Assembly (NCBI GenBank): GCA_044892525.1
Contig: CM097885.1
Coordinates: 82,894,001 to 82,958,000 of the forward strand
Origin: Schmidtea polychroa
Lineage: Eukaryota
Reading direction: 5' to 3'
Length of the DNA: 64,000 nucleotides
Position numbers and translations under genes: made by a program. Of this stretch, positions 23,486-59,487 are shown piece after piece (the stretch's first letter is position 1; each line of letters starts with the position of its first letter). The notes beneath the pieces are model-generated. The model worked only from the letters and a program-made list of their open reading frames with translations, ran no database searches and was not told the origin of the DNA.

Positions 23486-24349
23486 TAAAACCTTAATCTG
23501 AACAGTCAATAAAGTATCGTTCAAATCTAAATATTCGGTTTGCGAACCATTAATATAAAACTCGATATCATTTCTACTATCGGTAATTGAATTCATAGGA
23601 AAAACTTCCTCAAATGCCCCAAATTCTATTACAAATCATTTTGCAAATATAGTTCCATGTCCTTTCATTCGTTTGTTTATACGTGATATTCCATGTCTTT
23701 TACGTTTTGGAGCATGAGCTGGAGCTGGAGCTGGAGGTTTTTCTTTTTGAAACATACCTGCAACCCCGGGTAAAACTTTCCCTAATTCTGCTAAAGCATT
23801 TGATTTTAGAGATGGTAATATTTTCTGTTCATTCCTTCTGTAATATATAAATTATCTTTAAAAGTGTATGCATGCTCAGTTATTTCAAAGTATGATAGCT
23901 TAAATTTGAATTCCACTAAATTATTAGTTTTTGGATGTGTAGAGAGATTTATTTTGACTGTATCATTAAATACATTACGTAAATCAGTAAATCCAATACG
24001 TTTAGCATCAGCCATTGTAGAAAATAAAATTTCGAATGGCTTATTCAAGCAATTCATGTATAAATATTGACCATCATCATAAATTATAGGTTTACTTGAT
24101 TTCGATGACTATCTTTATCAATAAGAACACTAATATATTCCGTTACTGATACTTTCTCATTATATTCAATAACGGATTTGCTATAGATTGGGAATAAATT
24201 GTATACAAATTGTTGGGTGTACGTGGGGGAAATGGATAACTATTACTAATATGCACACAAACTCTCATCATTCCGCTCAGACGCTTCCCTCGTACACGCC
24301 CCATGATCATGCAAATATTCCCACGTATGAGCCCGTAGTGATGTTCTAC

Positions 24350-24458
24350 GTTGGTGCTGCCCACACGGGTCGGAAGAAGCTAGCAGGTGAGCCTCTATCT
24401 TAAGACTACTCCTAACCCCCTCTCAGTACAGGTTCTATGGTGCCTTAGAAGGACTTAC
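24350..24458. other. Conserved structured LTR motif, copy C
   Basis: CAGGTGAGCCTCTATCTTAAGACTACT...TAGAAGGACTTAC. Confidence 0.75.
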
Positions 24459-24753
24459 CCGTTCCTACATTTGCAATCGGCCCGACCCTGGTCCAAGAGG
24501 ACGGCCTTCATTCAAGGATGCTGTTCCAGTTTAACAATTCAATTATGCATTTCACTCATCATTCTCATCATTCAATCAACAAATAAAGAAAAATAAAATT
24601 TGTATTACATTCAAAAATTATCGAGACCGAAAAATCGTACACCAACATGCAATAAACTATTGATTACATAATACCGACGAATTGTTAGATACAGAGATAT
24701 TAGTTAAAGGTCTTTTCGAAATGAGAGATGGATCCCATCGTCGGGTCGGAATT

Positions 24754-25514
24754 TCAGAACGCATCTCCATCGGCGAATACTTCGTCTATGTCTACTGGCA
24801 ACCTGCGATCCACCAGATACTTAATGCCCTCGGCTGGAACCACTTTGAATATCTCCTTGGCCGGAATTACGTGGGTGGCTGAGATATCCTTAATTGTGGA
24901 CTGGGCCATGGATAAAGAAGCTTCTAGCGCCGCCATGGCGTTCCTGCGCTTCTGATTTTTCTCCGAGCGTGTTAATCTATTGCGTTTCCGACGTGGCTTG
25001 ATAGTATCTACTGGAACCTGTGACATAGGTTGAGGTACTAGAATCGGGGCCAAGATAGGGTCCGATGAGCCTCCTGCCATGGGTCTGTAGCCCGAGAGAA
25101 TTGGAGCGGGAATTAGTGGCAGATGCGGCCCATGCCCCTTACAACCAGTTGTGGTTGACTGTGCCGATTGGTGGTGGATCGGGAACACGTTAGTCCCGTC
25201 TTGCACTGGATACTCGCGAACTCGTTTCGCTATTTCTGATTCCGAGTAAACTTTATGGAGTGCCTCTGATTGGGCTTTTATGGTTAGCCTCTGGCACCGA
25301 CTTTCTTCTAGGAGACTGTCTCGGCAGTGCTCCAGGGCAATATTTTGCTCTTTTCCTCTTTCATTTGTGGCGGGGAGAACCACGTGCCTTCATAATGATT
25401 GATTCTTTTCTTTAGTGCCCCGATGTAGAGGTGAAGCTGCGCGATGTCAGCATTTTTGTCCGCGCAGGAAAAACAAGGACGAAGAGTTTTCTCGGTATTG
25501 ATTGGGGTAGTCAT
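24754..25514 (-). pseudogene. LTR-encoded protein homologous to 6488-7237, frameshifted near 25380
   Basis: Two overlapping ORFs (68 aa and 209 aa) together align with the 249-aa ORF; TTTAG acceptor-like site immediately before ATG. Confidence 0.8.
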
Positions 25515-26615
25515 CTAAAGATTAAAGATATTTACGTTTGCTTTTAGTATTTCGTTGATCGACGATCGTATTTTTGCGGCGCGAGTTTTATCACCTACAT
25601 CCTTCATAAACTGAACTTAAAGGAAAAATTATCTCACACATACATTCAACATTCGTCCTTAAACTCATTTATGCCCCAAACATCCACGATAATTCGCACA
25701 AATCTCTGTAACTTATTTAAAAGAAAATGAGAATAACCATGTTAATTTGCTCGTCTAAATCAATCTCATCTCAAATTCGGGGTGTCGATTATGGTTAAAT
25801 ATATCGTTGCTATTCACAATGTTAATATAGTGTCATTAATCGGGTTTGTGATGTTACTTAATTACATTTTTCTTTGCACTGTTAATTTTATTAAATTGTC
25901 TATTTATTTTTAATATATTATTATTTTCAAATCTCCGCTGGACTCGTTGTCATAACGACGCAACCTAAGGTGTTTTTGTATGGAAATATCTCTATCCGTG
26001 TGTATTGTGAAATACCGTTTGCAAGTAAAATGTCTCTGCACGAAAAGTACTGCCTGCTCATTTGTTTCTACATACCGTTCTACCAGCTCAGGCGAAGCCT
26101 ATACTATTATGCAATCTATCACGTCATACAAGAACTTTGCCGTTTATACTACTGTAGTCTTCTAGAGCGAATTTCTCTACAGCCTGTGAGTGTATGTACT
26201 CTTATGGCATTATCTACTAGAGTTGTTATGAGTAAAGGCCTTACGTATGTGTGTGTGATTCGGAGGGTTGTGAACGAGCTAAAGCTAATCATCTAATCTC
26301 TATGGTGTTGTAAATTCACGATAGCAGCTGTCAACACACTCAATGGATGAATCTTAAAAATTTTTCTATGCAAGTAAACATATTCAAAAACTTATTACCC
26401 GCCGTTACCCAGTGCTTAGCAGAACTACTGCTATATATCATTCATAGCACTGGGCAGAAATTGACCGTGACGCTGAGAAAATAATTGTATTTTTCAATTC
26501 AGGTAGGACGAAAAGCGGAGATGATCTCGCACAATGCTGGAACCGGATTCGGACGCGGCTACGACAGAGATATTCGAACACGGCGCTTTATGTAGAGCAA
26601 ACACTGAAGGGAAAA

Positions 26616-29600
26616 ATGAAGAGAGCGGCCGATATGGACCAGAGAGCGATTACGCTGCTCACAAGAGTCCGAGATAACAAATACAGGAATAATACAAACG
26701 ATAAAAATAATGAAAAAGAGAACTTTAATAATATTAATAATATTTATTCTAAGGATCAAAATAAATGGAGAAATGAAGCTGCTTTGAGACGGCAGATAAC
26801 GATGGAACACCGTGACACGACTACTCCACCTCATGACCTGGACTATGGACATGGACCTGGCAGGCAGATGGCTGCAGCGCACCGAATAACGACTCCACCA
26901 TCCTGTGATCTTGATTGCCAGGATGTATCCGGCAGAGGCTTTGTGGACGGGAGAGATGCTGGAGGAGTAATGAATGGGTACGATAATTATGATTACTCTA
27001 ATAAAAATAAATCAATAATATATAATTCGAATCAAACAAATATGAGAGGAAAAAATAATGACTATTACCCGCATGACAGCCATATAAAGAAATCAGCCTA
27101 TGGCTTTGCTTCACCTAATATGCCTGCTGAAAGTAACTCTCCCTCTAAATGCTTTGATAATGAAAGACAAAATACTTCTTACGTGAATGGCCGTCCGTTA
27201 AATGAAAAGGCATACTATCTTGACACTCCTGATCTGCCTAACAGTGATGAAACTATGCGAATTAATGAACTTAATGCGAAAATAATTGATAAAATAAACA
27301 ATAATAACCAAACCTATGCCAACAATTACCTTCTTCCACATCCTTCTTCTGCCCAATATGATGAAAGAAGTGCTCCAATAAAAATAAATCCACCTTCCTA
27401 TAAAGAGAAATTAATAAACAGAATAAATAAAAATAATGCCCATGAAGATCGAATTAATGAAGACTATATTAGAAAATACAGTCTCCATAATGATACGAAA
27501 TACTATGATTATAATAAAGAATGTAATACTCATATTGACAATAGTAAAAAATACTATTGTCCTGACGAATATAGTTACTTTTGCGAAAATCGCTCTGCCA
27601 AAAATGGCGAAAATAAATTTAAATTAATTAATAATGATAATAATAATATATTTAAACAACATATTTATAATAATGATATAAGTAATAGTGAATATAATAA
27701 TAATAAAAAGCATAATTTAAATAATGAAAATGATAAATCCAATAACTCTAAAAATCCAAAAAACAAATATAATAATAAATTTATAATTAATAATACATTG
27801 AACTATAATTTAAATCAAATTGAAAATGAATTCTATAATTTTAAATTAAAATTAGATAATAGTCTAATTAATTTTAAATACAAAATCGGAAATTTGTTTA
27901 AATTACCTAAACAATTTCCTTTTTTGAAAAATAATGATTTCCAAAATTTTTCTTGCCCTTCGGGCAAGAAAAATAAGCCCCTACGCAGCTCATCGGCCTG
28001 CGGCCGATTCGCCGGCTCCCGGACCAACAACGACGACGACGAAACCACAAAAAACGACCTTACTATCGACTTAACCGCAGAACCTCTACCCAACAATAAC
28101 ATCAATGACCAACACGCTGAAATACCAAATACGAAAATATCCAATAATACCTTTCGCCGAGAAATAAAAACACTCTCGAAACATTTTTGGACGATGTTCC
28201 ACAAAGACCCCACCTACATAAATATTCTTAAAGATTATAATAACGAGCTAAATAACTACAATGAAGACGACCAACCAATACCACTGACCAATAACACTAC
28301 AATGAACGTACCCACACTACCCATCACTAACAATAATGACACTACATTATCCAAAACACAAGCCAACAAAAATGACAAATACGAAACCACACCTAGTCTC
28401 ACCAATAACAGATTTCACGCCTTAGCCACCATAAATAATGACCCTAAGGTAAACAGTATAACAGACGCAAACCCACCAGCACCGTCTAACTACAACATTC
28501 CTACATCCACCACTAACAGTACCACTAATGTCCCACAACCTCATTCCATTTCCCCCCCTACCAAACCCATAGAAACTCAATCTTCCCCAATCAAAGCTAA
28601 TCAATCAAACACAATACAATCAACAACTAAACCACCCACTTACATTACTCCATTAAATACATGCAATAACAATATCGAAACCACAATACACTCGTCCCCA
28701 AATAAGGATACAAATATCACCCACAATAAAAGGGATAAACATCTCATACAAGAAATCCACAGAATAATCAACTGTAACAATCAAGAAATCTCCAAAAAAC
28801 ATGAAACAACCACAAAAAACCTGCAACAATACATAATACAACAACAACACGAACAAGCTAATACACACGAAACATTAGCGCTCCTAATCTCACAGATGAC
28901 AAAATTGCAACAACAACTACTCACACATAATACAGCAGCATCCTCCCAACTCCCTCACGACATTGATGATGTACACTTAACTCTCACGCCCAAGGATGAT
29001 GACCTAAACATACCTCCACAATTCCATCAACCTGAACCCTCAGACAATGAATCAAATGATTCCCAATCGGAAGATGACAATGACGGATACATCACAGAAA
29101 TAGAACGACAAATCCATGTGAATAACAAAGTCGACATTGATGAGACCCCAACCCAACAAACACCATCACAATATGAACAAATCAACAACACCCAACAAGA
29201 ACAAACAACACAAAGAACAACATCTTCCAGCGGCTCCCTTTTTTCACCAATGGAAAACATAACTCCAGTTGACCTCAACGACCCCTTTAACATGTATCAT
29301 GCACTAGATGTCCTCCACATAAAAGACTTTGCAATCATTAAAGACATAATGAAAACGCCACCAGCACCAGATACACAAACCTCAGAATCATCCACCAATA
29401 CACCCAATCCACTATATAACCTGCTCAACACCAACGAACAACCAGTAACCCAAAACCTCACCACGATTGACTCCCCATTCACGCTCAAAAAACAAGCACT
29501 ATTTAAACTAGGTAGTGAAGGCTACCTAAAATGTAGGATGAAAAATTGCAAACATGGCAAAATTGGCCCTCTGATGGAAGACAAGCAACATGAACACATG

Positions 29601-30095
29601 AAAAGCATGCATGACCGAATTATAAAAGACACAGACACATTCGAATGCCTAATATGCCAAAGACAGAGGAAAAAAGGACAGAACCAAACCAAATTCCTTC
29701 TCACAAATATTGAAGAACACTGGCTTGATTATCACCCTGAAAAACAAATCCCTGGTACTAGAGAACAATATAATGACAAAAGGCGAATCCTCACACTAGA
29801 GCTAAACGAAGAGGGAACACTACTATGCACATACATATGTAAGAAAAACCCCTGTGATATACATATGACTGTGAAGACCACCGCCAATGACATACTCAAA
29901 CACATTTCTACAAAACACAAAAGTAAAGTATTTGACCAGACCACAAACGTCAAATGCCACTGTGGTGAAACAATAAACTTTGATAATATGAAACAACACC
30001 ACCACTCACACATGGGAATACTTGAACCCACTGAAATAAACAATGAACCCCCCACAAACATCCCAGTAACCACCAAAGACATAGACTCCGACTGA
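26616..30095 (+). CDS. Non-LTR element N-terminal ORF: Asn/Thr-rich low complexity plus four C2H2-like zinc fingers
   Basis: 1159 aa; CRMKNC..HMKSMH, CLIC..HWLDYH, CKKNPC..HISTKH, CHC..HHHSH; ends at a single TGA in frame with the next ORF. Confidence 0.85.
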   Translation: MKRAADMDQRAITLLTRVRDNKYRNNTNDKNNEKENFNNINNIYSKDQNKWRNEAALRRQITMEHRDTTTPPHDLDYGHGPGRQMAAAHRITTPPSCDLDCQDVSGRGFVDGRDAGGVMNGYDNYDYSNKNKSIIYNSNQTNMRGKNNDYYPHDSHIKKSAYGFASPNMPAESNSPSKCFDNERQNTSYVNGRPLNEKAYYLDTPDLPNSDETMRINELNAKIIDKINNNNQTYANNYLLPHPSSAQYDERSAPIKINPPSYKEKLINRINKNNAHEDRINEDYIRKYSLHNDTKYYDYNKECNTHIDNSKKYYCPDEYSYFCENRSAKNGENKFKLINNDNNNIFKQHIYNNDISNSEYNNNKKHNLNNENDKSNNSKNPKNKYNNKFIINNTLNYNLNQIENEFYNFKLKLDNSLINFKYKIGNLFKLPKQFPFLKNNDFQNFSCPSGKKNKPLRSSSACGRFAGSRTNNDDDETTKNDLTIDLTAEPLPNNNINDQHAEIPNTKISNNTFRREIKTLSKHFWTMFHKDPTYINILKDYNNELNNYNEDDQPIPLTNNTTMNVPTLPITNNNDTTLSKTQANKNDKYETTPSLTNNRFHALATINNDPKVNSITDANPPAPSNYNIPTSTTNSTTNVPQPHSISPPTKPIETQSSPIKANQSNTIQSTTKPPTYITPLNTCNNNIETTIHSSPNKDTNITHNKRDKHLIQEIHRIINCNNQEISKKHETTTKNLQQYIIQQQHEQANTHETLALLISQMTKLQQQLLTHNTAASSQLPHDIDDVHLTLTPKDDDLNIPPQFHQPEPSDNESNDSQSEDDNDGYITEIERQIHVNNKVDIDETPTQQTPSQYEQINNTQQEQTTQRTTSSSGSLFSPMENITPVDLNDPFNMYHALDVLHIKDFAIIKDIMKTPPAPDTQTSESSTNTPNPLYNLLNTNEQPVTQNLTTIDSPFTLKKQALFKLGSEGYLKCRMKNCKHGKIGPLMEDKQHEHMKSMHDRIIKDTDTFECLICQRQRKKGQNQTKFLLTNIEEHWLDYHPEKQIPGTREQYNDKRRILTLELNEEGTLLCTYICKKNPCDIHMTVKTTANDILKHISTKHKSKVFDQTTNVKCHCGETINFDNMKQHHHSHMGILEPTEINNEPPTNIPVTTKDIDSD

Positions 30096-30122
30096 CTAAA
30101 CCAGCACCAGATCTCCGCATAC

Positions 30123-33100
30123 ATGCTAACACATGCAACTACTGAAAACACTATATACATAGATAGCTTTATAGGACTTGCATGCATTGAAAAACACTTC
30201 CAAACCTTTTTTTCTGCCTTCCCATTTCATAAATATCCTACATGGATAGACCTAATTTGGCCCATCAACATCGAAAGGAACCTCTGGATACTCTTTTACA
30301 TAAATAAAAAACGTAACCTTGCCACAATTATTGATCCCACCTGCCAAATTAGCACCATGAAACATTACAACACAGCAACAACTATACTCAACATACTGAC
30401 CAACCTCCAAAACATAATAACCACAAATGATTTCACCTTACAAGAACTAACATATCCAAGATGCAATGAAACAAAGCAATCAGGATACTACATATGCCAC
30501 TTTGCCAAATGCCTAGCCTCCAACAGATGCATCACACTCCCCGACATACAAAACATACGCACAGACCTTAACAAAATAATAAACCTAATAATATATAGAA
30601 GGAAAGCAACTGATGACGTGACCAGATATACCGCATTCATTGATGACATAATTATCCAGCTTGACACTAATACTATCCATGTTGATGAGAGCCTCGTAGA
30701 AATTGCCAAGATACATGAAGCTATATACCCCAACAAATACAAAAGTAAAACAATACCAATAAACATCCTCAACTCAAAAGACACTAAGCGATTAGTATTC
30801 GAGCTACGACTAGACTTTGATAGAAGACCAAAAGCAACAATTGAAAAAATACTCAACAAAAATGAAAACACAACGACCACACCGACAGACGATGACATCT
30901 ACAAAAACTTCCAAACCACAACAAAACACATAACTAAATATAGTACACCAGATACACAACCCTCATACATTGACCTTATATCAGATAAACCCATAACAGA
31001 CACAGAACTCAACGAATCCATACTCAAACTTGACAGCACATCAGCCCCAGGTAGTGACAAAATCACATACAAAGAGTGGAAAAAGATAGACCCGAAAAAC
31101 AAATTTAGACTGGCACTTTTTAACAACATACTACGCAATGGACATAGTCCCAAAACGTGGAAAACCTTTAGAACGAAACTCATCCTTAAACCAGGCAAAG
31201 AGCAATCACCGCATGAAGTATCATCCTGGAGACCGCTTGCTATACTGGACTCAGCATATCGCACATTTGCCTCAATCATGAATGATAGACTTCTCTCCTG
31301 GATTCAGCTAGGACACCTGTTGAGCACTAACCAGAAAGCGGTGGGAACTCCGGATGGATGCGCTGAACATAACACAGTTATCAGTCTCGCCAAGGAATGT
31401 GCAGTGAGAAATGGGACGGATATTAATATCATCTGGCTGGACCTTGCGGATGCTTTTGGTAGCCTTCCGCATGACCTTATTTGGCATACCCTGTCGAGAC
31501 TGAAACTGAAGGCAAAAACAATCGATCTTATTAAAGAAATGTATACTGACTGCTACTCAATATACGAATGCGAGGACCGACGATCAAGGGAGATACGGAT
31601 AAACAATGGAGTCAAGCAAGGCTGCCCAATGTCTATGACTCTGTTCAGCCTCTCCATTGACTATATCCTCCAGAAAATCCTCAAACAACACCCACTTGTT
31701 ATAGATGGACACAATATAAGCATAATGGCATATGCAGATGACATTGTCATGATCTCCAACACACGGCAAGAAATAGGTAACATGTTACGAACTATAGTTG
31801 AACTCTCTGACATATCTCACCTTAAATTCAGACCCTCTAAGTGCGGCTACTTCCAACTACAACGAAACCACAAAGAGATACCCCTAACTATATACAAGGA
31901 AAAAATACCCATCATTGATCACGACAACATATATAAATACCTAGGAGTTGACTTCGGCCAGAAAGGCAAACATGACATTGACAACACACTCATAAAAGCG
32001 ATTGATGACACGACAAAAATAATGACCTCTGACCTACACCCAGCACAAAAACTTCAAGCATACAAGACTTTCATACACTCTAGACTAATATTTCCATTCA
32101 GAAACTGTACAATCAACAACATGATTCTTGACAGCAACAGAAACAAAGTAGTACAAAATAGACCCAAACAATTAGGATATGACCAAAAAATAAAGAGAAT
32201 ATTAAAAGATACACTAGATGATATACACCAAAACATTAATAACAACTTCTTTTATGCACATTGTAAACTAGGAGGTCTTGGCATAGTGCCTAGTATAGAT
32301 GAATACATGATACAAGGCATCACACACATCATCAAAATACTACACACACGAGACACTAGCATGAGGGAATTCATAATCCAGCAAATGATAGCAGTAGCCA
32401 AAATACGATTTAAACACACCACAATAGACATACACCAAACACTACGCTGGATTAATGCAGACATTAAAGGTGACATAAGTGGACCAGCAACTGTATTCGG
32501 AAAATTTCGGTCTGCCATAAAAAGAATGAATGAGAAATTCGGCATCAAAATCACACTGACACTTGACAACAACAAATACATACTACTCCTGAAAACAAAA
32601 GACTACACCATATATATTAACGACACAAACCTCACAGAAACCTCTGCCAAACTACATGAAATCACAAGTGAATGGTATGCAGATCAATGGTACCAGATGA
32701 CATGTCAAGGATACATTTCTAGGACCATAGGCGCAAATAGACAATCAGCACACCTAATCAAATCACACACCCTGACAGATAAACAATACATATTTCTCAT
32801 TAAAGCAAGAAACAACATGATAAGCCTCAACTATAGTGCATACAGAATGAAAGAAAACATGAATACAAAATGTAGGCTCTGTAATGCTGAACCAGAAACA
32901 CAAGCACACATATTCAATCACTGCCTCAAAACAACAAATGCTAGGAGAAACAAACACAATAAGGTCATGGATAAAGTTAGCGGGTATCTCATTTCGAAAG
33001 GTTTCCAAGTAGACGTAGAACGCCCACCCCCCGGAATAGACACTAGGCTAAGACCAGACCTCATCATCAAAACAAAAAGGAATAACAAAATCCACATACT

Positions 33101-37477: not shown

Positions 37478-37649
37478 CATTTGGAAACCCACGTTCTGAT
37501 ACCTGAGTTTATAACTCTGGTATCCATCGGTCATTGAATTAAAAGCTACAGAACTCTAAGGGTGAGAAGTTCTCCCCTTCCTGGCCAAGTGCCGTCAATT
37601 GATTAAAATAAAATTTGATTTTTTTTTTTTTTTTTTTTTTTTTTTATTT

Positions 37650-43944: not shown

Positions 43945-43950
43945 GCATCT

Positions 43951-48130: not shown

Positions 48131-50371
48131 CAAGAATGGTTTTTTGAAATCTGGATGTACTAGTATTGGGGCTTCAATCAATTTATCTCGTAATGTCTCA
48201 AATGCTCTTTGTTGTTCTGCACCCCAAATAAATGAAATATCTTTTTTCACTAATTCCTGGATTGGTTTCGCAACACTTGCGTAGTTTTTAATGAATTTCC
48301 GATAATATCCGCATAATCCGAGGAATTCTTGAACTTGGGTAACAGTTTTTGGTGCTGGACAGGTTTTTATTTTCTCTATATTTCTGGGATCTGGTTCTTT
48401 GCCTTTTGCTGACACTATGTGTCCTAAAAACGTAACTTTCTCTTTTGCCCAATCACATTTTGATGGTTTGAGTTTCAATTTCCATTGTCGTAATCGAATG
48501 AAAACGTTTCTGATATCTTCCAAATGTTGTTCAAATGTTGCTGAATATATTAATAAATCATCAATATATACCATACACTGCTTGATCCCGTGGGTGACAA
48601 AGTTCATGCACCTTTGAAATGATGCTGGGGCATTGGTCAGTCCGAATGGCATTTTCCTGAATTGGTATAGATCTCGACCCAATGTGAATGCTGTTTTCTC
48701 TTTGTCCTCCTCTTTGACTTTGATCTGCCAATATCCGCTCTTTAGATCTAAAGACGTAAAGTATGCGGCCCCCTGTAACATAAGTAACATCTCATTGATG
48801 TCTGGTAATGGGTATGTGTCTCTTTTCGTTACTGCATTTAGTTTCCGATAATCGATACAGAATCTCTGTGTACCGTCCTTTTTCTTCACCATGACTACCG
48901 GAAATTGCCATGGTGAACAACTTGGTTCGATCACTTGTGCGTCTAACATCTTTTGTACTTCTGCTTCGGCTATCTCTTTCTGTTTTTCGGCTAGTTTGTA
49001 TGGACGTAGTGCAATCGGGGTTTCGTCTATTAAGGGTATTGCGTGTAATGTGACATCGCATGCTCCCAAATCTATATCCGAAATGGCGAATATATCTTTA
49101 TATTCTATCAGTAATTGTTGAAGTTTTTCCTTTTCCTTCTCCGTTAGCAAGGTGCTATCAATTATCCATAATTCGTCAGCTTTCATTGTTTCGTTGGTGA
49201 CTTTTGGTAATTCAATATCCATCATGGGTGTCAATCTACCCAATCTTTCATTTTCATATATGATCTTGTCTTCTTCCTCGAAATTCGTGATGTTGATTGG
49301 TATTTCCTCTTCTTCATTTATGGTTATTATTTCTCTTGCTAATGGTAATTCTCGTCTTTTCTCGAATGATTTGCTTGGCTCAAAGATAGCTTCCCCTTCT
49401 AATCCAGTATCTACTTTTATTTGACATATCATCTGTGATTTCGCTGGTACGATTATTTTCTCCGGGCATCTGATTATTGCGTTCATCTTGCATATTCTAC
49501 CCATTTTATCTTTCAGACACATTGTTGTTAGATCGATTACTACTTCCTTGAACAGTTCCGGCATTAAATCTGTTCCGATGATGCATGGTTCGCTAAGTTT
49601 GGGTATTACTGCCAGGTAAGTTTCGATTTCATTATCTTGATATCGCAACGTGGTCCACCATCTTCCTACTACATCCACGGTTTCTTTACTGCATGCAATA
49701 ATATGAATAGTTGTTTGTTCGATGTCTTTCCAATATTTACTGGGTATTTGGTTTATTGCTATTGCTGATACATTCGCTCCAGTGTCTATCATTGCGCTCG
49801 TCTCTTTCCCGTTGATTTGGATCATGACTGTTACTGCTGCTCCTCCTGGTGAGCTCATTACTGCTATTGTTCTTACGTCATCGGCTTGGTCTACGCTTTT
49901 GGTCCTTCTAGTTGGCATATAATTCATTCCTGGTTGACTTGGTAACTGTGGATACATATTTTGTGTCATGGTCAAAGCTGTTTGTTGTCCAACGATATCC
50001 GGTGGTATATAACTTCCGTTGGCTATCCAGGTATTTGTTTTTTCTTTCTCCCAGTATGGTGCTGTTTCTATTTGCTTTTCGTTCGGGTTTCTGCTTGGGT
50101 ACGGATATTTGTCATTCCCGTTATCATCATCATCACTATCACTGCTGTTTGATCGATTTCTAAATCTGTCTAAAAATTTTGGTTTGTTCTTTTTTAGTTG
50201 CGCCCTCGTTGCTTCATCATACATTGTTTTCCGGAATCGTCTGCCAACTTCCTCGTCAGTCCCTTTTATTTTTGTCAGTATTTTGATTAATCGTTTTATT
50301 CTGTGTATATCTTTTGAATGACCGTGTAACACCATTGTTTTCGCCAAAAATGGTAGGAAGCCTACTATCAA
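48128..50371 (-). CDS. pol: Glycoprotein tail, aspartic protease and reverse transcriptase
   Basis: MIDTGANVS and CIIGTDL protease; PWQFPVVMVKKKDG, FCIDYRKLN, LDLKSGYWQ, MPFGLTNAP, YIDD RT. Confidence 0.97.
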   Translation of the reverse strand: MIVGFLPFLAKTMVLHGHSKDIHRIKRLIKILTKIKGTDEEVGRRFRKTMYDEATRAQLKKNKPKFLDRFRNRSNSSDSDDDDNGNDKYPYPSRNPNEKQIETAPYWEKEKTNTWIANGSYIPPDIVGQQTALTMTQNMYPQLPSQPGMNYMPTRRTKSVDQADDVRTIAVMSSPGGAAVTVMIQINGKETSAMIDTGANVSAIAINQIPSKYWKDIEQTTIHIIACSKETVDVVGRWWTTLRYQDNEIETYLAVIPKLSEPCIIGTDLMPELFKEVVIDLTTMCLKDKMGRICKMNAIIRCPEKIIVPAKSQMICQIKVDTGLEGEAIFEPSKSFEKRRELPLAREIITINEEEEIPINITNFEEEDKIIYENERLGRLTPMMDIELPKVTNETMKADELWIIDSTLLTEKEKEKLQQLLIEYKDIFAISDIDLGACDVTLHAIPLIDETPIALRPYKLAEKQKEIAEAEVQKMLDAQVIEPSCSPWQFPVVMVKKKDGTQRFCIDYRKLNAVTKRDTYPLPDINEMLLMLQGAAYFTSLDLKSGYWQIKVKEEDKEKTAFTLGRDLYQFRKMPFGLTNAPASFQRCMNFVTHGIKQCMVYIDDLLIYSATFEQHLEDIRNVFIRLRQWKLKLKPSKCDWAKEKVTFLGHIVSAKGKEPDPRNIEKIKTCPAPKTVTQVQEFLGLCGYYRKFIKNYASVAKPIQELVKKDISFIWGAEQQRAFETLRDKLIEAPILVHPDFKKPFL

Positions 50372-52230
50372 TTTCCAATTTACTTTCTTTCTCTCTTATA
50401 GATATCAAAACACGCTAACATTTGAGTCAATATTACTCTGACAATCTGAATAATTAAGATGATTCCCAGTATTCCTGCCATCATTTGACCGAACACTAGA
50501 AATCTTCCCCACATTGCTTTCATCATGTTCGACGTGGCTTGTTGAAAATGATCTGGTGATAATAATAGTTCATAATTGGGACCTGATTGGAAATTTGTTC
50601 CACCAGTTATGGTAACCATATTTGATAAAATGGATTCTCGCCTTGCTGGGAATAGTACGTTTAGTCATGCTGTTTCTAAATCCTCTGGTGAGTACATACC
50701 TGCTTTTGACACATCAATTGGTTTGAAATTTTGTTCTGTTGCGAGTTCTATTAATCCAAACTTTTTAGGTTCTTGTACTTCGGTTTTTACCGGTAACATT
50801 ATCCATTTCCCATCGGGTTTTTCATAATATGGTCCGTATGCATTTGAACAGTTAAAGGTGTTCGGATAAAATCCAATTTGGTTCATGATTCTAGTGACGG
50901 GTTGAACGAATCTATTCTGCCCTTTGTAACTAATTTCTAATTCGTTTGGACATTTTCCTGGTGGAATTGTGGGTTTTCTTGGCATTCGCGCAAACGTCTT
51001 GGTACATGCATATGTATACATCACCTCTCCTACCATCCTGCCAAAATGTCCATCCGGTAACGGGAGTGATGGCATCGTGTTATCTGGGTGTGTTATTGCG
51101 ATGACTAATTTTGTTTTTAGTATCTCTTTATTCAATGAACAGTCATTTTGTATGAGATCGTAATATACTTTTTGCATTGTCGTTTGTCCTCGATGAAATA
51201 AAAAGTCCATTTTGTTATTGGCATACAGGTACAGCTTTACGTCCTCTGTTGATATCTTCCCCACTGCTCGGTCTATTACTTGTCTTGACATGTAAATGCC
51301 TGCGTAGTTGGTTCTGTATACTATGCTGTCACATTTGGTGGTCTCTTTTTCTCTGATGAACCTCATACCTATATCCGGATCATCTGTAATTAGTGCCGTT
51401 GGTGTTTTTTGTGTTGTGAGTCTTTTTTCTTTGGGTGATGGGGGAACTGGTTTTCCATTTCGCATCCTTACGTTTCCATTCTCTTCATCGTCATCTTCGT
51501 TTTCATAAATTTCTCCTTTTACTTCATTGAATAAAGCACTTTTTAACAGTTGGAGTCGGCATTTTTGGGTGTTAGCTTCATATATTATGGTCGAAATTCC
51601 CGTCCTACACACGTTTTCCGTAGCTCTGCATGCTGGGTTGGTTTTCATTTGATAATTATTTGCGTCGAATTGCGCTTCGTATTCCTTCAACTCCACTGTG
51701 TAGGATTCGATTACTACTACCCCCGATATCACCTCTCCTCTGATCGTGTAGGTGCCCCCGTTGCATGATCCATCAGTTGATTTTACTCGTCCGGCTACAT
51801 AGATGCTTTCAGTCTTGATCATTCCGCTTTGTCCGTGTATTGTTACTCCATCTCTGATTCTCATCGCTCCGGTTCTAAAAAGCTCTTTACAGTCTTCTCG
51901 TTGTATAGGTACTATTTCTTTATATAATCCGGGTAGTATGAGAGTTGAATATGAATATTGCCCACAGTAATATGCCAACACCTTCTTTGATATTACGCAT
52001 TCTCTTGCTTGTGTTCGGATAAAATCTGACTCTTGATATACGTGATAGGAGACTTTCTTTTTTACTATATCTAATTTATTCGGAGACGCCTGTCTACATT
52101 CCTCTATATCTCTCAGCGAGTACTTTTCTCCCATTACTGAATTGTCACAGTCGTAAATTGTAAATCCTGCTGCTCCGCTTGTGCATAGCATCCATATCAT
52201 CATGGTCATCATTAAAGAGTTGATCGATGC
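50340..52230 (-). CDS. env: Env-like class III fusion glycoprotein (chuvirus G / gB-like) with signal peptide and TM
   Basis: Signal-like MMTMMIWMLCTSGAAG then FTIYDC..YSLRDIEEC..C..YCG..DC..G..AG..DGSC.G..YANNKMD..C..GEVMY..C..C..EL..F.QP.TRI..C..Y..GKW; TM FLVFGQMMAGILGIILII; one in-frame TGA at 50665. Confidence 0.82.
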
Positions 52231-54726
52231 TTTCCTGCTGGCTGGGTCTTTCATTGGCAATTCCCATTCTAGTTCGTTTAGCAACTTCTTCAACCGAATT
52301 TGCATTGATCTCTCTTGTTCGTTTTTTCGTGGCGCTTGTATAAGCCTTTTCCACCCGCCGGCGCGGATAATATGTGGCTCAATTGTATTTTCAATGATCG
52401 TAACTGTCATTTCTACATGGTTTGCGAATTGTTTGTTAGGTATTTTCCTTGCTGCTAATCCCATCAAATTGTACATTAGATACGTTAATACCACTAGATG
52501 ATGTTCGTCGTCGTTCGCGTTTAGAGTTAATTGTTCAATTACTCTCCTTGTCTCTTCCCAATCTGTTTTAGTGGTTTTTGTTTTCTCTTTGATTAATTTC
52601 GGAATTATTCCGGATATTGTATTCCATAGTTGTCTGGCGTCTACGCTTGCTACTTTTCGTTGCCATAACCGTCGCAATTGTAGGTTTGTTATTATTAACA
52701 TATCCTTTACTAGCTCTCGTATCCATTTTTCACCTCTTTCGATTGTTGGTTGGGCCTCTCTCAGATCCCACACTATTTTATCCAGTTTCTCCAATCTGAT
52801 TTGTCCTTGTTCTTGTTTTAGTTGTTCTCTGTTTTTAAATTCTGGTTTTTCTCCTTGCTTCCTAGGTCTTCCTTTTGCCCGTTTCTCCATCATTGTTCCA
52901 GCTTCCCTTGTCATTACGTAACTCGGGTTTCTCTCATTATCTGTTCTTGGTAATGAGCTATCGTTGTTTCTCAGCCACTCATTCCATTCGTCTATTATTT
53001 TGTCCGTTTGACCTTCTGGTGTTACTTTTGTTGGTCCTTTTTGTCGTTGGAATTGTTCGTCGGTTTCGGTTTCGGTTTTATTATCGATAATCTCCTCGAT
53101 ACTCAGCTTACTTGGTTGTTGATAGCTAGTTGACGGTTGGTCTGTGGTCCAGATTTCTGCCCCTGTCGGCCATCTCACCAGAATTGGTGATCTTTCTTCC
53201 GCTCCTTCGTCACTATCTTCTAATATGATTTCCTCGATTTCTTCGGTTTCATTTGATTTGCTTGGCACCTTGTCAGGACTTGGTGTACTTAAGCTACCTT
53301 TCGTGGTTTTACTGGATTTGGTTTTCTTTTTGATTGGTTTTCCCAACGTTTCTGCCAGTGTCAATATATTGATCTCCCCCAGTCTCATGGGTGTTATTCC
53401 GACGTCTGCATTATCATCTAATGATTTTCCGAATAACTGTAGGTGAAATGGAGTTTCGTAGGCTAGTTTATTTTTTAATTCCCTGATCTTCGTTGTTGGG
53501 TGCACTTCTATATCCTCAATGCTTTTGTCGGGATACTTGACTCGGATACTATATCTTTCTTGGGTATCTTGTGCCCACTCTTGATTCCTCCATTTTCTAA
53601 TGATTTGTTCTAGCTGTTCTGGATACCATTCGTTATACTGTCGGTATTCCTCTATCGCTTTCGCCATTTCTCTTAGATTGTGGATATTCTCTGATGTCTT
53701 TAGGATGATGTTGGCCAATGCTATTACCTGTCGTTTTTGATTTTTTGCTCCCATTGCTAAGATATCACCTAATTGTTTGTATCTTTCCTTCTCTTCTCGC
53801 TCTCGGGCTTCTATCGCTTCCTCACTGTCCATGTCGGCATATTCGCGTTCCTTCTTTCTCATCGCATGAATATGTCTGGTTTCCGTTTCACTTTCGGACG
53901 TGACGTCCGCTTCGCTTTCGCCGTCCGATACCGGTTCTACTTCGTCCTCTTCGTATTTTGGAGGTTCATCTTCCTCTTCTTCTGATTCACTTTCTGTCTC
54001 GCCAATGTCTGTTTCTACGAAAATTCCTTTCCTGACTTCCCACTCTTTATTTTCCGCATTCCACGCCCTTTCCCATGGGGTTCGTCTGCAAGATCTAGTA
54101 CTCAGTTTTTTTATTTTTCCTTGTAGCTCCTTCTCTTTTAGCCATTGTTGATGAATTTCAATTATCTCTACTGATTTTTGGTATAGCGTTTTCATCCTGT
54201 CTCGTATCTCTTTCTGGTATGTTACATCTCTTGTTCTGAATTCGTCCATGGGCAATATTCTAATTATTTGGTGATTATCCCACATTCCCATTTCGCTTAA
54301 CGAGGTATCGTCCTCTGCCCGTAATATTATTTTATCGTACATCATGACTACGTCATCTATCATGCCATCACTACTCTCGCTTCGTACTTTTTCCGTTACC
54401 TCTTGGTTTATCTTTGATACTAAGTCATCCACCGTACTCTGATTGCTCATTTTTATTCGTCGTTTCTCCTCGTTTGGTAACCATATGGTTATTTCCAATT
54501 TCTTTAGTTGCGTTTCTTTTAACCTTCCATATTTGTGGATCAAATTTATGGTTCTCCAATCGCTCATCCTGAGCAATTCTGTATCTCGTAATCGGCTCAT
54601 TAGTTCATGCATAGCTGGGGTTCGTTTTGCTATGAGCAAATCCCAGTTATCTTCAACTTGTTCTTGGATTTGTTTGATTAGTTTATCTAGATTTCGTCTT
54701 AAGGTGCATTGTTTTATTTTTTCCAA
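50665..54726 (-). CDS. Polyprotein segment: ubiquitin-like domains, acidic linkers, Bcl-2-like domain, glycoprotein ectodomain
   Basis: 1353-aa ORF; UBL-like at ~54500-54250 and ~53555-53360; BH2-like IEPHIIRAGGWKRL with GGW at 52351-52359. Confidence 0.8.
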   Translation of the reverse strand: MEKIKQCTLRRNLDKLIKQIQEQVEDNWDLLIAKRTPAMHELMSRLRDTELLRMSDWRTINLIHKYGRLKETQLKKLEITIWLPNEEKRRIKMSNQSTVDDLVSKINQEVTEKVRSESSDGMIDDVVMMYDKIILRAEDDTSLSEMGMWDNHQIIRILPMDEFRTRDVTYQKEIRDRMKTLYQKSVEIIEIHQQWLKEKELQGKIKKLSTRSCRRTPWERAWNAENKEWEVRKGIFVETDIGETESESEEEEDEPPKYEEDEVEPVSDGESEADVTSESETETRHIHAMRKKEREYADMDSEEAIEAREREEKERYKQLGDILAMGAKNQKRQVIALANIILKTSENIHNLREMAKAIEEYRQYNEWYPEQLEQIIRKWRNQEWAQDTQERYSIRVKYPDKSIEDIEVHPTTKIRELKNKLAYETPFHLQLFGKSLDDNADVGITPMRLGEINILTLAETLGKPIKKKTKSSKTTKGSLSTPSPDKVPSKSNETEEIEEIILEDSDEGAEERSPILVRWPTGAEIWTTDQPSTSYQQPSKLSIEEIIDNKTETETDEQFQRQKGPTKVTPEGQTDKIIDEWNEWLRNNDSSLPRTDNERNPSYVMTREAGTMMEKRAKGRPRKQGEKPEFKNREQLKQEQGQIRLEKLDKIVWDLREAQPTIERGEKWIRELVKDMLIITNLQLRRLWQRKVASVDARQLWNTISGIIPKLIKEKTKTTKTDWEETRRVIEQLTLNANDDEHHLVVLTYLMYNLMGLAARKIPNKQFANHVEMTVTIIENTIEPHIIRAGGWKRLIQAPRKNEQERSMQIRLKKLLNELEWELPMKDPASRKASINSLMMTMMIWMLCTSGAAGFTIYDCDNSVMGEKYSLRDIEECRQASPNKLDIVKKKVSYHVYQESDFIRTQARECVISKKVLAYYCGQYSYSTLILPGLYKEIVPIQREDCKELFRTGAMRIRDGVTIHGQSGMIKTESIYVAGRVKSTDGSCNGGTYTIRGEVISGVVVIESYTVELKEYEAQFDANNYQMKTNPACRATENVCRTGISTIIYEANTQKCRLQLLKSALFNEVKGEIYENEDDDEENGNVRMRNGKPVPPSPKEKRLTTQKTPTALITDDPDIGMRFIREKETTKCDSIVYRTNYAGIYMSRQVIDRAVGKISTEDVKLYLYANNKMDFLFHRGQTTMQKVYYDLIQNDCSLNKEILKTKLVIAITHPDNTMPSLPLPDGHFGRMVGEVMYTYACTKTFARMPRKPTIPPGKCPNELEISYKGQNRFVQPVTRIMNQIGFYPNTFNCSNAYGPYYEKPDGKWIMLPVKTEVQEPKKFGLIELATEQNFKPIDVSKAGMYSPEDLETA

Positions 54727-54728
54727 TT

Positions 54729-55600
54729 TCAGCTTGATATTAAAATCGTATTCGGCTTGGCGTCTTTAGCCCATTCATGAACATTGGTTGGTTGTTTCTC
54801 TTTATGCAACTTTAATATTTGGGTTTCTCCTGGCCAGATCAATGCATCTATTAAGTGCATGTCTGGTTTAATTTGTTCCCCTTGATATTGATACAGGTAT
54901 TCTTTCTTTCTTGAACTGCCCAAATGTTCTCTTATCCAATCGAAAAGCTCGTCTGTAACTATTTCTTATCCATATTCTCTCGAGCCCTTTACTCGTTCCG
55001 ACTTTTATTACGTAGTGTGTTGTCTCCGCTTGTTTCATCTTTTCCATATATTTCTTTATTATCGTTTTTTCCTCGCTTGGTATTAAATCTTTTTCGTTTC
55101 TTTCTAGTTTCATTATCTTTTGTAGGACGCGTCTATATGGTATAATGAAAATAAATTCCTGGTTTCTTACCACCACTGGAAGTATTTCTTTTACTTGTTT
55201 TATCGCTTCTTCTCTTTCTTTTCTCAATTTCATCTCGATATTCTCATCTTCACTTTCACTTGTCACGTCGCTTTCACTGTCATCTTCATCTGCTCCGATC
55301 TTTTCTCTTAGTTGTTCGATATTTTCATTTAACTGGAATATTTCTCCGCCAAGGCTACTCACATAATCCTCATCGTCATCCGTTGATAATACCTTCTTTG
55401 TCGTCCTCATCATATTAATTCGTAGATTTCGCATTCTTGGTACTTTCTTTAACTTCTTATGCTCGAATATCGTTAAATCTTCTGAGTCTGATTCTTGTAT
55501 CATATCATGATTTAGATGATTAATCTGTTTCCCATTTTCGTTATTTTCTGCTTCCGTTTCTGTTTTGATTTTCTCGTGTTCCCTTTCGATTTTATCTTTT
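54729..55600 (-). CDS. Polyprotein segment after gag with SUMO/ubiquitin-like domain (frameshifted)
   Basis: Joining the 211-aa and 64-aa ORFs gives HYVIKVGTSKG..FRL....KEYLYQYQGEQIKPDMHLIDALIWPGETQIL, a beta-grasp-like pattern. Confidence 0.55.
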
Positions 55601-55640
55601 ATCTTTTTCCAGAATATCTTCTGAATTCTCTGATTTCCTT

Positions 55641-57340
55641 TTAACGGTGTTGTTGGATTTTCTTTTTTAGCTGCTGTAATCGTTCCTTTGGTTTCTCTGG
55701 TTCGATCAATGGGACTACTCTTGGATTTTTCCCATAATTATAGCAATACTGCTCTTTTATCTCTTTTACCATTCTCATCATATTTATTCGTAATGGTTGT
55801 TCTTGTCGCTGCTGAATTCGCTCTCTTTTTATTCTTTCTTCTTCAGCTTGTAGTCTCTGCCATTCTTGTGCATGTTGTTGTACTTCATAATTGTTAAGAT
55901 TCTCGGTGCTCCTCATCATACGTATATTCTGAGTTTGTTGTGGTGCTGGTTCTTGTCTTGGTCTCATCATTTGTTGCATCATTTGTTTCATTTGGGAAAT
56001 TTCTTGCATTACATTCATTTGTTTCCCCTCACTGGGGTTACCTTGTCGTTGCGGATTTGGTGTATAATTATTATTCCGTTGTGGTGGTCGTTGTTGTTGA
56101 CTCCTTTCTCGGCATTCTCTTGAGATATGACCTGGTTGACCACAGTTAAAACATGTTCTCATTTGGCATATGTTTTCCGTGTGCCCTCGTCGTCCACACC
56201 TACTGCAATTTGCGTTTCGGTAACAATCTCTATTCCAATGCCCTGGTTTACCGCATGTTCGGCATTGTTTGTTATCGTTCGCATTTCGTCGATTATTAAA
56301 ATTGTTCCCATTATTTGAGTTGTTGCGTTCGTTGTTATTCCCGTTTGATCGTCCGTGTGGTGGTTTGAAAATTTGATGCGCACCTGGTATAAACTGATTC
56401 ATCTTTGGTTCGTGATTGTTGTCATCTCCATTTTCCGTTTTCACTGTTGCTGTTGCGATTCTTCCCTCCTCTTGCATGACATTCATTTGTGCTGGGAGGT
56501 GTAGTTCGCATCTTGTGGCCCAATCTATGGCCTCTTCTAGTGTTTTACACATTTGACATCCCACCGAGGCTCTTACCTCTTCCCGGCGTAGTCCTTCTAT
56601 GAAATACCCAATTAAAATTTCCTCCGGCAAGTTTCCGTTCATGGCCTTTTTTGCCAATCTTCGCAATTCGCTTGCGTATAACGTTATTGACTCGTTTGCT
56701 CTTTGTTTTCTACTTCCCAGTTCGCTTAACGCTTGATTTATTGGTTTGCTGGCTCCGAAGGTTTTCCTCAGGAATGTTTTGATATCGTCCCATTTATCTA
56801 ATTTCGTATTTCTTTCTTTAGCTTCTAAGTACACTTCTAATGCGCTATCGCATAAAAACAACGGCATCCTTTTGCTAACTGCTTCAGATGTCCATCCACA
56901 CACATCGATATAGACTTCAAAGTTGGTTATGAACGTTGCCAACTTGTTCGCATTCCCGTTGAACGGTTCGCCTCTAAATTTTTCTTTATACTCGTCGGTT
57001 CTTACCACATTCGTCATGATTGGTTCTTGAAACTCTATTCTTTCTTTTAAATTTTCCAGCGATGTCGCTAAATTATGGACGGATAATTCTTCTGTTGACC
57101 CGGTTAGGTTGTTTGTTATATCAGATAGGCTTTCTCTGCTTCTAGATCGACTGGGCGTATATCCGGCTGTGGGGTTTTCTTGATCGTATATCTGTGTTTT
57201 GTTAGTTCTTTTTGCTCCTTGTGATATTCCTCTCTGATGCCTAAATGATCGTCCTTTTTTGAGTTGGTCTAATTCGTCTCCTGAAAATAATACGTCTCCT
57301 CGCTTACTTGAAGATCTAAGGTTGGGTTTATCCGTGATTC
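55641..57340 (-). CDS. gag: Gag (capsid plus three CCHC zinc knuckles)
   Basis: FNG....FITNFE..W.....LFL.DSAL capsid pattern, QRANESITLY..LRRLA; CRTCGKPGHWNRDC, CSRCGRRGHTENIC, CFNCGQPGHISREC; frame open without ATG up to ~57340. Confidence 0.95.
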
Positions 57341-57865
57341 TTTCTTACTCTTTTCTGTCTTTTCACGTGGATTTTTCTACGGTTAGCGGCTGCTGAATTG
57401 GGCAAGTTCGGTTCTGATAGTGTTTCCTTCGAGGAATATTCCGCGTAATTTCTCGGCTGATTTCCGGAGGAGATATCTGAGTCCTTGATTGACTTCTGCT
57501 AGTACGTCGATGCTAAGTATTTTGATAATTCCGTCGTAGATAAGAATGTCGTTGTTGTCTTCCGTGTTTGGGTGGGTTTGTCTTCTGTTGAGCGGGTTCT
57601 GGATTGGCTTGATTGGCTGGATTGGTCTGATATCTAGAATGAAAAAATGATATCGTGTTGCATTTGCTTACACGAATCAATCATTCCTTTTTGCCACATT
57701 CAAGCACAGACACCGTTTTAGGGCCTCTGTTATGCTCCTCTTCTTTTCCCCATATAATTCCTCGTGGACTATAATTACCCATCAACCCATAGTTTTCGTC
57801 GATTTTAAATTATCTATATGGGGTAGTCACAATTATCTATATGGTCGTATTAATTATCTACAGTG

Positions 57866-58345
57866 CTAACTGAAGTAAATCGTGTTCTTCTCCTTTATCA
57901 CACATACACATAAAGAACAATGCGTTAAACTGACGGCGCATTCGTCACAATGGCTAAGGTGTCCACAAGGTAGAATTAGAATTCTGGCAGGTCGCGTCTT
58001 ACAAATGTTACAAGTTCTCAAGGCCGCTGCTTTCTCTACTATCGATGTTCGTATTCTCTGAGACAGAGTTTTTACTTGTTCGCGTATTCTCACATATTCG
58101 ATGTTCAGAGCGGGGTCGTCGAGTCGTTGCTGCATCCATTGGTAATGGGTAGACAAGTCGGTGTCGGTGTTTGTTGCTCCCAGTTTATTGGTTAAATAAT
58201 TTTGTTTTGATATCAGAGGTGCATCGTGGCGTTGTTGTTCCAGGGTCTCTATTTGTTGCAGTTTTTCCCTTAACGTCTTTATGGAATCGTTTTCTATGTC
58301 GACGAACCGGCTTAGTCGTTGTAAATGTTGTCGGGCTTCTGACAT
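57866..58345 (-). CDS. RING-finger protein (IAP/MDM2-type C3HC4) in the 5' leader
   Basis: Coiled coil then CNICKTRPARILILPCGHLSHCDECAVSLTHCSLC at the extreme C-terminus; acceptor-like TATTTAG 2 nt before ATG. Confidence 0.88.
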   Translation of the reverse strand: MSEARQHLQRLSRFVDIENDSIKTLREKLQQIETLEQQRHDAPLISKQNYLTNKLGATNTDTDLSTHYQWMQQRLDDPALNIEYVRIREQVKTLSQRIRTSIVEKAAALRTCNICKTRPARILILPCGHLSHCDECAVSLTHCSLCVCVIKEKNTIYFS

Positions 58346-58751
58346 GTCTAAATAAGTATGTTGTCATTACTCGGTCTCACTTAAAAAATTAAAAATAATA
58401 TTATTGTGTTATAATCAATATTTGTTTGGCTTTTATTCGCTATTGTTTTATATTTTATTCACTCTTTGATAATTTTCCCTTTTTGTTTAATAACTTAGAA
58501 TTAAACAGAATTAGCCAATTCCCATTTTCTTTTCTCATCATTCTCAATCACATTCATTCAAGCTCATTTAGATTCGTTTATATTCATAGTATGCTCTATT
58601 TCACACAAAACAGCTCGTATCATCATTCTAATGCACTATAATATCGATTCATTTCAGTCCCGTTCCATTTTTTATCATAATTAATTAAATTGTTAATCTA
58701 ACACGTCATACCCAATAATAGGTAATCAAACAAATGAAATTAATAAGTGAG

Positions 58752-58769
58752 ATCCCGGCTGAGCCCCCA
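58752..58769 (-). promoter_or_regulatory. Primer-binding site, tRNA-Pro type
   Basis: TGGGGGCTCAGCCGGGAT matches 16/18 of the canonical PBS-Pro TGGGGGCTCGTCCGGGAT; 7 nt from the LTR end CA. Confidence 0.85.
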
Positions 58770-58776
58770 AAAATCA

Positions 58777-59487
58777 TGTTGGGTGTACGTGGGGGAAATG
58801 GATAACTATTACTAATATGCACACAAACTCTCATCATTCCGCTCAGACGCTTCCCTCGTACACGCCCCATGATCATGCAAATATTCCCACGTATGAGCCC
58901 GTAGTGATGTTCTACGTTGGTGCTGCCCACACGGGTCGGAAGAAGCTAGCAGGTGAGCCTCTATCTTAAGACTACTCCTAACCCCCTCTCAGTACAGGTT
59001 CTATGGTGCCTTAGAAGGACTTACCCGTTCCTACATTTGCAATCGGCCCGACCCTGGTCCAAGAGGACGGCCTTCATTCAAGGATGCTGTTCCAGTTTAA
59101 CAATTCAATTATGCATTTCACTCATCATTCTCATCATTCAATCAACAAATAAAGAAAAATAAAATTTGTATTACATTCAAAAATTATCGAGACCGAAAAA
59201 TCGTACACCAACATGCAATAAACTATTGATTACATAATACCGACGAATTGTTAGATACAGAGATATTAGTTAAAGGTCTTTTCGAAATGAGAGATGGATC
59301 CCATCGTCGGGTCGGAATTTCAGAACGCATCTCCATCGGCGAATACTTCGTCTATGTCTACTGGCAACCTGCGATCCACCAGATACTTAATGCCCTCGGC
59401 TGGAACCACTTTGAATATCTCCTTGGCCGGAATTACGTGGGTGGCTGAGATATCCTTAATTGTGGACTGGGCCATGGATAAAGAAGC
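58777..59487 (-). mobile_element. 5' LTR remnant (U5 end plus end of the LTR ORF; motif copy D at 58950-59024)
   Basis: Identical by eye to 24211-24921 (offset 34566). Confidence 0.92.

Follow-up and report, generated by a model that had tools for sequence, protein, structure and literature searches.

We analyzed a 64,000-nucleotide stretch of the Schmidtea polychroa genome (assembly GCA_044892525.1, contig CM097885.1, forward-strand positions 82,894,001 to 82,958,000; here called the window) and conclude with high confidence that it carries a broken, inserted copy of a Burro-type giant Ty3/gypsy long terminal repeat (LTR) retroelement, whose intact relatives likely replicate as enveloped particles of a retrovirus-like kind and likely keep the host cell alive by means of captured modules for cell death and ubiquitin signaling. 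The identification as a Burro-type giant Ty3/gypsy element, taken by itself, leaves us little doubt. A preliminary description, made from the sequence alone, had proposed a giant Burro-like gypsy element with an envelope protein (Env) and cell-death and ubiquitin cargo, and this proposal is supported; its further statement that this copy is itself a virus-like system fails, given that the window copy is broken. The description had also allowed that the architecture might match an already annotated family, and this is largely the case: it is already known, given that the same domain order, together with the ideas of a provirus and of interference with apoptosis and ubiquitination, was published for planarian Burro elements (PMC6431247, section 7).

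The window holds one Ty3/gypsy LTR retroelement on the minus strand, with the Pfam domain order protease (PR), reverse transcriptase (RT), RNase H (RH) and integrase (IN), a gypsy-type RNase H and an HHCC integrase. Pfam matches above cut-off are, in order, RING, Retrotrans_gag, CCHC, Monjiviricetes_fusion (E 7.7e-52), RVP, RVT_1, RT_RNaseH, integrase and two ankyrin blocks. A single long direct repeat is present in the window, 711 bp in length and 100% identical between its copies (24211-24921 and 58777-59487), and the internal region between the LTRs of the window copy measures 19,393 bp, in line with the approximately 19.4 kb first estimated. The repeat, the pairing of the primer-binding site with a tRNA and the Pfam matches above cut-off confirm the LTR, proline-type primer site, RING open reading frame (ORF), gag, glycoprotein, PR, RT, RH, IN and two ankyrin domains that had been listed from the sequence. 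The span 24211..59487, previously taken as one element, is one element from LTR to LTR, but 11,290 bp of it are an inserted long interspersed element (LINE) that had been overlooked.

Sibling copies and selection

A family search with the 5' region of the window element, in which the best 40 of 788 candidates were scored, led to four other copies (siblings) that were compared in full. All four are collinear with the window copy, at about 90-93% over the long frame, and measure 28.6-31.1 kb, with LTRs of 4.1-4.2 kb whose pairs are 99.5-100% identical; one of the four has a stop-free long frame of 4,811 codons. The typical family member is about 30 kb long, more than the 28 kb or so that had been suggested for an intact element, and the window copy has lost its TRAF gene as well as a leader segment of about 1.3 kb.

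Synonymous changes were in excess in all 21 pairs of natural copies (Fisher p <=3e-6), and the ratio of nonsynonymous to synonymous change (dN/dS) was 0.016-0.39 in the 14 pairs for which it could be computed, dS being saturated in the other 7. By module, dN/dS was 0.16 for the upstream RING ORF (against a sibling), 0.04 and 0.05 for ubiquitin-like units b and c, 0.016-0.026 for the Bcl-2-like domain, 0.04 for Env, 0.14 for accessory ORF 3 and 0.39 for accessory ORF 4. Each cargo module tested is under purifying selection, and the element therefore uses its cargo, whichever that use may be.

Organization of the long frame

The long frame of the window copy lies in seven pieces, with six frameshifts and two stops, and these pieces map in order onto the intact sibling frame at 84-99% identity. 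Unless stated otherwise, the features given below are on the minus strand. Upstream of the long frame, an ORF with a C-terminal RING finger (57866..58363; zf-C3HC4_3, Pfam E 2e-08) contains no BIR. The first piece (55641..57344) encodes the Gag capsid domain and three CCHC knuckles and ends at a frameshift near 55,690. Env (50428..52230) comprises an internal signal-like stretch, a chuvirus/gB-type fusion ectodomain (PF24664, E 7.7e-52) and then a membrane anchor (50484-50428); its PDB sequence search returned blank or unrelated matches. A stop at 50665-50667 falls between the ectodomain and the anchor in the window copy. The next piece (48131..50395, with frameshifts near 50,390 and 48,130) holds the protease (DTGA), a putative dUTPase-like stretch (49540-49193) and the reverse transcriptase (YIDD), followed by RNase H, integrase (HHCC and core) and the first ankyrin block (45522..48173, frameshift near 45,560). 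The second ankyrin block and a C-terminal region with two hydrophobic stretches (43150..45597, stop at 43951-43953) close the long frame. Hydrophobic anchor-like stretches are present; the preliminary description had noted a transmembrane segment.

Probable ubiquitin-like and Bcl-2-like modules and a putative dUTPase-like stretch

Three likely ubiquitin-like units and one likely Bcl-2-like domain are encoded in the long frame. Unit a (54768..55053) is interrupted by one frameshift, near 54,960, and a second lies near 54,755; the unit has an Atlas lead of 0.85 on a homologue and no Pfam or PDB support. Unit b (54244..54546), likely ubiquitin/SUMO-like, has an Atlas lead of 0.86 to PF11976 on a homologue and weak beta-grasp matches in Pfam, and its PDB profile search gave no ubiquitin match. 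For unit c (53329..53601), the Pfam ubiquitin match (E 0.006) is below cut-off, and all four PDB profile matches are ubiquitin-fold proteins (E 0.4-0.8). Fold searches for units a and b returned no relevant match. When the profiles of the three units were compared with each other, the matches were weak, at E 0.0007, 0.02 and 0.3. The Bcl-2-like domain (52279..52806) includes a BH2-like motif and matches Pfam Bcl-2 at E 0.025, its PDB profile matches (E 1.3-2.5) rank under unrelated ones, and a homologue search with this region returned a single homologue (P0001). Foldseek, which had been named as a check, placed Bcl-xL/Bcl-2 at all top ranks for the Bcl-2-like model, over approximately 140 columns, with E from 0.24 and none at or below 0.001 (model pLDDT 46). 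The Pfam, PDB-profile and Foldseek lines for this unit are not independent, given that they share one sequence signal.

Between PR and RT, where a dUTPase-like domain is annotated in Burro, lies a conserved 116-aa stretch with no Pfam or PDB match, for which the dUTPase-like label is tentative. We retain the ubiquitin-like and Bcl-2-like labels as likely given their agreement with the published HHpred annotation of Burro (PMC6431247). The three ubiquitin-like domains and the Bcl-2-like domain named earlier thus survive as weak matches, and we consider these likely labels on the strength of their concordance.

The TRAF gene and the accessory ORFs

After the long frame, all four siblings carry an intronless TRAF ORF of 479 codons with RING, TRAF zinc finger and MATH domains (complete at L006:7749-9188, L010:7338-8777 and L014:5786-7225, which are sibling loci). 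With the window and one piece of 53 bp set aside, the 5'-region search left 39 other matches, and 36 of these have a TRAF-MATH match downstream, on the same strand and within 40 kb, 32 of them at a distance of 18.4-19.5 kb, where 0.003 per site would be expected. This test used 123 of the best 150 scored TRAF matches (>=85% identity) and left out 27 near 70%, 1,461 candidates existing in total. An open frame of 460-490 codons is reported for 91 of the 123, 2 of these 91 being flagged with an internal stop. A search for a donor gene of the TRAF ORF found no homologue at E 1e-30 among 3,327 candidates. The window copy retains a stub (42472..42515) in which the first codons and the 3' end remain and about 1.3 kb of the gene is absent. 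We rejected the idea that the loss marks a subfamily that has spread, given that the window alone spans the junction among the best 40 of 501 candidates. A whole downstream TRAF gene as standard cargo, like the conserved LTR gene described below, was not found in the literature examined; primary Burro descriptions may already cover both.

The four accessory ORFs previously counted are present on the minus strand, starting at 43011, 42254, 41016 and 40283. Accessory ORF 1 (42703..43011, about 95 codons) is 85-88% identical to its sibling counterparts and 27% identical to that of a BIR-bearing Burro family in the same genome, and is conserved in both Burro lineages examined. Accessory ORFs 2 (41190..42254) and 3 (40312..41016) are coiled-coil-like with no family found, and accessory ORF 4 (39603..40283) has one membrane-anchor-like stretch.

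Comparison with known planarian elements

Burro/GYPSM1 is longer than 30 kb and has a 4,873-aa frame that contains Gag, three CCHC motifs, MATH, Ubi/SUMO-like and BCL2-like domains and an in-frame Env, followed by PR, dUTPase-like, RT, RH, IN, BIR and ankyrin; a proviral nature and interference with apoptosis and ubiquitination were proposed for it (PMC6431247). The window family is similar in its size of approximately 30 kb, its single frame of about 4,800-5,100 aa, its three-CCHC Gag and accessory ORFs, its likely Ubi/SUMO-like and BCL2-like domains, and its Env in frame between the latter and PR, after which PR, RT, RH, IN and ankyrin follow. Unlike Burro/GYPSM1, it has a whole downstream TRAF gene (RING-zinc finger-coiled coil-MATH); in Dugesia tigrina a MATH ORF is placed upstream (PMC6431247). 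The Burro passages of PMC6431247 that were available make no mention of an LTR gene. The MATH/TRAF-C domain that characterizes Burro is found in the TRAF ORF of all four siblings and is deleted in the window copy, and Pfam detected no MATH inside the long frame of the window family. No BIR was detected in the window or sibling ORFs scanned, and a motif scan counted none in the window element and 20 sibling loci and one in each of three control loci. Membership in Burro1 was rejected given this lack of a BIR.

The same genome contains a second abundant Burro lineage (L036-L053), whose long frame includes a MATH domain and whose TRAF ORF is followed by a BIR-RING (IAP) ORF of 392 codons (L038:5905-7083). 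Three copies of it were compared, and most of the best 150 of 309 BIR candidates scored lie in 392-393-codon frames. This Burro1-like family has the same backbone as the window family (RT 88% and Env 54% identical) and an upstream RING ORF, its downstream TRAF ORF is 32-35% identical to that of the window family, and one of the three copies has a distant match to the LTR gene. Given that the window family lacks both the BIR and a MATH domain in the long frame, and that a separate family of the same genome has both, it is, judged from its sequence, a sister lineage that would work like Burro1. The BIR-RING protein of Burro1 is reported, in a 2026 study as cited in PMC13465017, to protect stem cells from apoptosis and to aid regeneration.

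Six Schmidtea Gag-Env-Pol elements with an HSV/gB-type Env, Smed_errantivirus_1-6, span 14.5-18 kb according to the available text of PMC13524379. The window family shares with these, as far as they are described there, the Gag-Env-Pol order and the gB-type Env, and 31 of the first 60 positions match by eye between the Env of Smed_errantivirus_5 and that of the window. None of the six, as presented in that text, resembles by eye a direct orthologue of the window element; they are listed there with no LTR or tRNA type, and nowhere does the main text use the word "accessory". The Env features of infectious errantiviruses, namely a signal, a gB-type ectodomain and an anchor, are all present, with a stop preceding the anchor in the window copy. 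BURRO1 and BURRO4 are under PIWI control according to the portion of PMC8532177 that could be consulted, and the accessible text of PMC11410931 mentions Burro once.

The LTRs, the primer site and the LTR-encoded gene

The 5' LTR is reduced to its last 711 bp (58777..59487); its first 3.3 kb or so and the upstream copy of the target site are missing, and the remainder is absent from the adjoining 30 kb. Both copies of the 711-bp repeat end in CCCAACA, and the matching TGTTGGG start of the 3' LTR is at 39383. The 3' LTR consists of a first part of 1,740 bp (37644..39383) and a second part of 2,143 bp (24211..26353), which together make 3,883 bp (3.9 kb) without the insert; LTRs of the same type elsewhere are 4.0-4.1 kb long, and with relatives at 4.0-4.2 kb the earlier figure of 4-5 kb was too high. 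The primer-binding site for tRNA-Pro(TGG) (58752..58769) begins 7 bases after the 5' LTR, pairs at 18 of 18 positions (58769-58752) with the 3' end plus CCA of the genome's own tRNA-Pro(TGG), and is the same in all four siblings. Target duplications of 4 bp are readable in three of the four siblings (the fourth sits in a microsatellite) and in all five lone LTRs checked, and are unreadable for the window copy. Ahead of the 3' LTR, at 39384-39410, a GC-rich motif stands instead of a plain polypurine tract and is kept in all four siblings. The tRNA-Pro(TGG) genes themselves form a tandem array with a 475-bp period (locus L065; C1, 130.90-130.95 Mb of the same genome), with 2,164 pattern matches genome-wide.

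As the preliminary description had stated, the LTR has its own gene (24754..25514, about 253 codons, no known family), though in the window copy it is frameshifted once, near 25,335. The gene is open in all eight sibling LTRs and in eight of nine LTRs of the window's own type, and in a genome search the best 150 of 5,999 candidates scored were all at least 89% identical. It has no Pfam family and no Atlas entry, and none of 1,265 candidates with lengths of 139-445 aa proved homologous to it at E <=0.001. Its synonymous sites are saturated between copies whose long frames are more than 90% identical (L004, L008, L016 and L028), which suggests that LTRs have been exchanged between subfamilies. 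The window also holds a remnant of another such LTR (5645-7246), whose open LTR gene is 69% identical to that of a second subfamily.

Decay of the window copy

The window copy is inactive on its own: Gag and Pol no longer share a frame, a stop separates Env from its anchor, the TRAF gene has been deleted and the 5' LTR has lost most of its length. Between the two parts of the 3' LTR lie 11,290 bp of NeSL/R5/LIN-type non-LTR DNA on the plus strand (26354..37643), which includes two N stretches, a long LINE element (26448-33413, plus strand) with an Ulp1-like protease, RT, zf-RVT and one stop, and a second, partial LINE (35067-36260, plus strand) with a T run at its end. Comparison with related LTRs whose site is empty shows that 10 bp of LTR were replaced by the insert, and led us to reject the LINE as a part of the LTR. 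At the other end, the 5' LTR is cut at 59487 and joined, across a shared stretch of 4-5 bp, to a 5' fragment of a related LINE (59484..60205), 84.5% identical to the inserted one. Homopolymer assembly errors were rejected as the cause of the frameshifts, which lie in runs of 2-5 bases, as does the background.

Private changes in the window copy affect 25 of 1,717 conserved columns, the highest count of 7 copies, or approximately 0.65% per nonsynonymous site versus 0.08-0.42%. This load sits poorly with the LTRs, which show 0 differences in 711 bp where 7-9 would be expected (P about 1e-3 to 1e-4), and the identity could reflect copying from a template that was dead by then, gene conversion or an effect of the assembly. 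We give about even weight to the explanation that the breaks predate the insertion, intact relatives having recently mobilized, in trans, a template that was defective beforehand, or that gene conversion recently homogenized the LTR ends. Such a history would account for perfect LTR identity alongside the highest private load, and it agrees with the finding that the mismatches to the nearest relative (10 to L058) are common to the two LTR ends. Against it, the TRAF-loss junction is found in no other copy among the best 40 of 501 candidates, 711 bp are compatible with up to 0.42% divergence, and the LINE insert and the 5' cut would still have to be later events.

Proposed mechanism and alternatives

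Intact family members, by analogy with the general biology of retroviruses and of flavivirus-type polyprotein viruses, would be transcribed from the 5' LTR and translated into one polyprotein. The internal signal and the stop-transfer anchor would thread Env into the endoplasmic reticulum and leave Pol in the cytosol, and cleavage by the element's own protease would release the individual proteins. The RNA would be packaged by Gag and copied by RT from a tRNA-Pro primer, and insertion of the copy by integrase would give the 4-bp duplications. Env may then mediate entry into other cells, the putative Bcl-2-like, RING and TRAF products may dampen apoptosis and TNF/NF-kB-type signaling, and the LTR gene is a putative nuclear regulator. 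We lean modestly toward a host-protective use of the cargo and regard spread between cells as evenly balanced.

Several results weigh against this reading. Every ubiquitin-like and Bcl-2-like match is below its curated cut-off, both fold models are of low confidence (pLDDT 46 and 42), the ubiquitin-like one giving no clear match, and the dUTPase-like label has no Pfam or PDB match. The perfect LTR identity fits poorly with the decay, and the window lineage lacks the BIR, the sole module with reported functional data. We also considered, as a possible but weaker account, that the family is an intracellular retrotransposon in which Env and the cargo serve to assemble particles or to turn over proteins within the cell and not for spread or host control. 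Selection of the kind measured here would be seen under either use, and Env shares a single frame with Gag and Pol, whereas other gypsy-like elements have env as an ORF of its own (PMC6431247). Env nevertheless retains a signal-like stretch, an anchor and a match to the whole of PF24664 under a dN/dS of 0.04, and an anti-apoptotic effect is reported for Burro1 cargo (as cited in PMC13465017). A chimeric assembly of unrelated elements had been named as a possible refutation and might be suggested by the truncation of the 5' LTR, by a 711-bp repeat without a mismatch and by the nesting of LINE pieces. It is highly improbable given that the four siblings are collinear with the window from LTR to LTR, that the LTR is continuous apart from the LINE insert, which replaces only 10 bp, and that the frameshifts lie outside long single-base runs.

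The window copy itself is of little importance; the family matters more. One genome offers a natural contrast between a Burro lineage with a BIR-RING protein and a lineage that has no BIR but has TRAF, a likely Bcl-2-like unit and a RING ORF, and a comparison of the two can test which of the cargo genes protects stem cells. The near-identical TRAF copies, at least 123 in number, lie mostly inside elements, and tallies of "host" TRAF genes in planarians, as well as part of the piRNA targets, may need to be reread. The available parts of two reports describe an unexplained expansion of planarian TRAF/MATH genes (PMC6109357) and, in stem cells, a degradation by piRNAs that affects traf, E3-ligase and ankyrin mRNAs (PMC6824462), and a term search of the text at hand of PMC7586133 found no occurrence of "transpos". 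We offer, as a speculation that is more doubtful than probable, that Burro carries a host-signaling control cassette like those of large DNA viruses, made up of a complete intronless TRAF E3 ligase in both lineages and an LTR regulator in thousands of LTRs, lone ones included; the element genes would then be a main source of the TRAF expansion and the reason that piRNAs degrade these mRNAs.

Other features of the window and its surroundings

The inserted LINE resembles the NeSL/R5/LIN elements, as described in the accessible portion of PMC4640811, in having an Ulp1-like protease before RT and a C-terminal zinc finger. The planarian LIN families in that portion target rRNA or tRNA genes, whereas the window copies lie in a Burro LTR and have a T-run end. 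The sense strand of the NeSL-type LINE ends in a T run at both ends available (window 37619-37649 and L033 near 2600). Related LINEs occur at different sites inside three different Burro loci (the window, L032-L033 and L062), which may reflect mere abundance.

Elsewhere in the window, a transposase-like fragment (DUF4371, weak) lies at 12019-13681, and a DNA-transposon-like element with a 690-codon frame lies at 16391-19587. A copy 99% identical to the latter interrupts another Burro copy (L055-L056), with a short duplication. Just beyond the window (L001-L003) are long inverted repeats of about 4 kb at 99% identity and AAT-type arrays.

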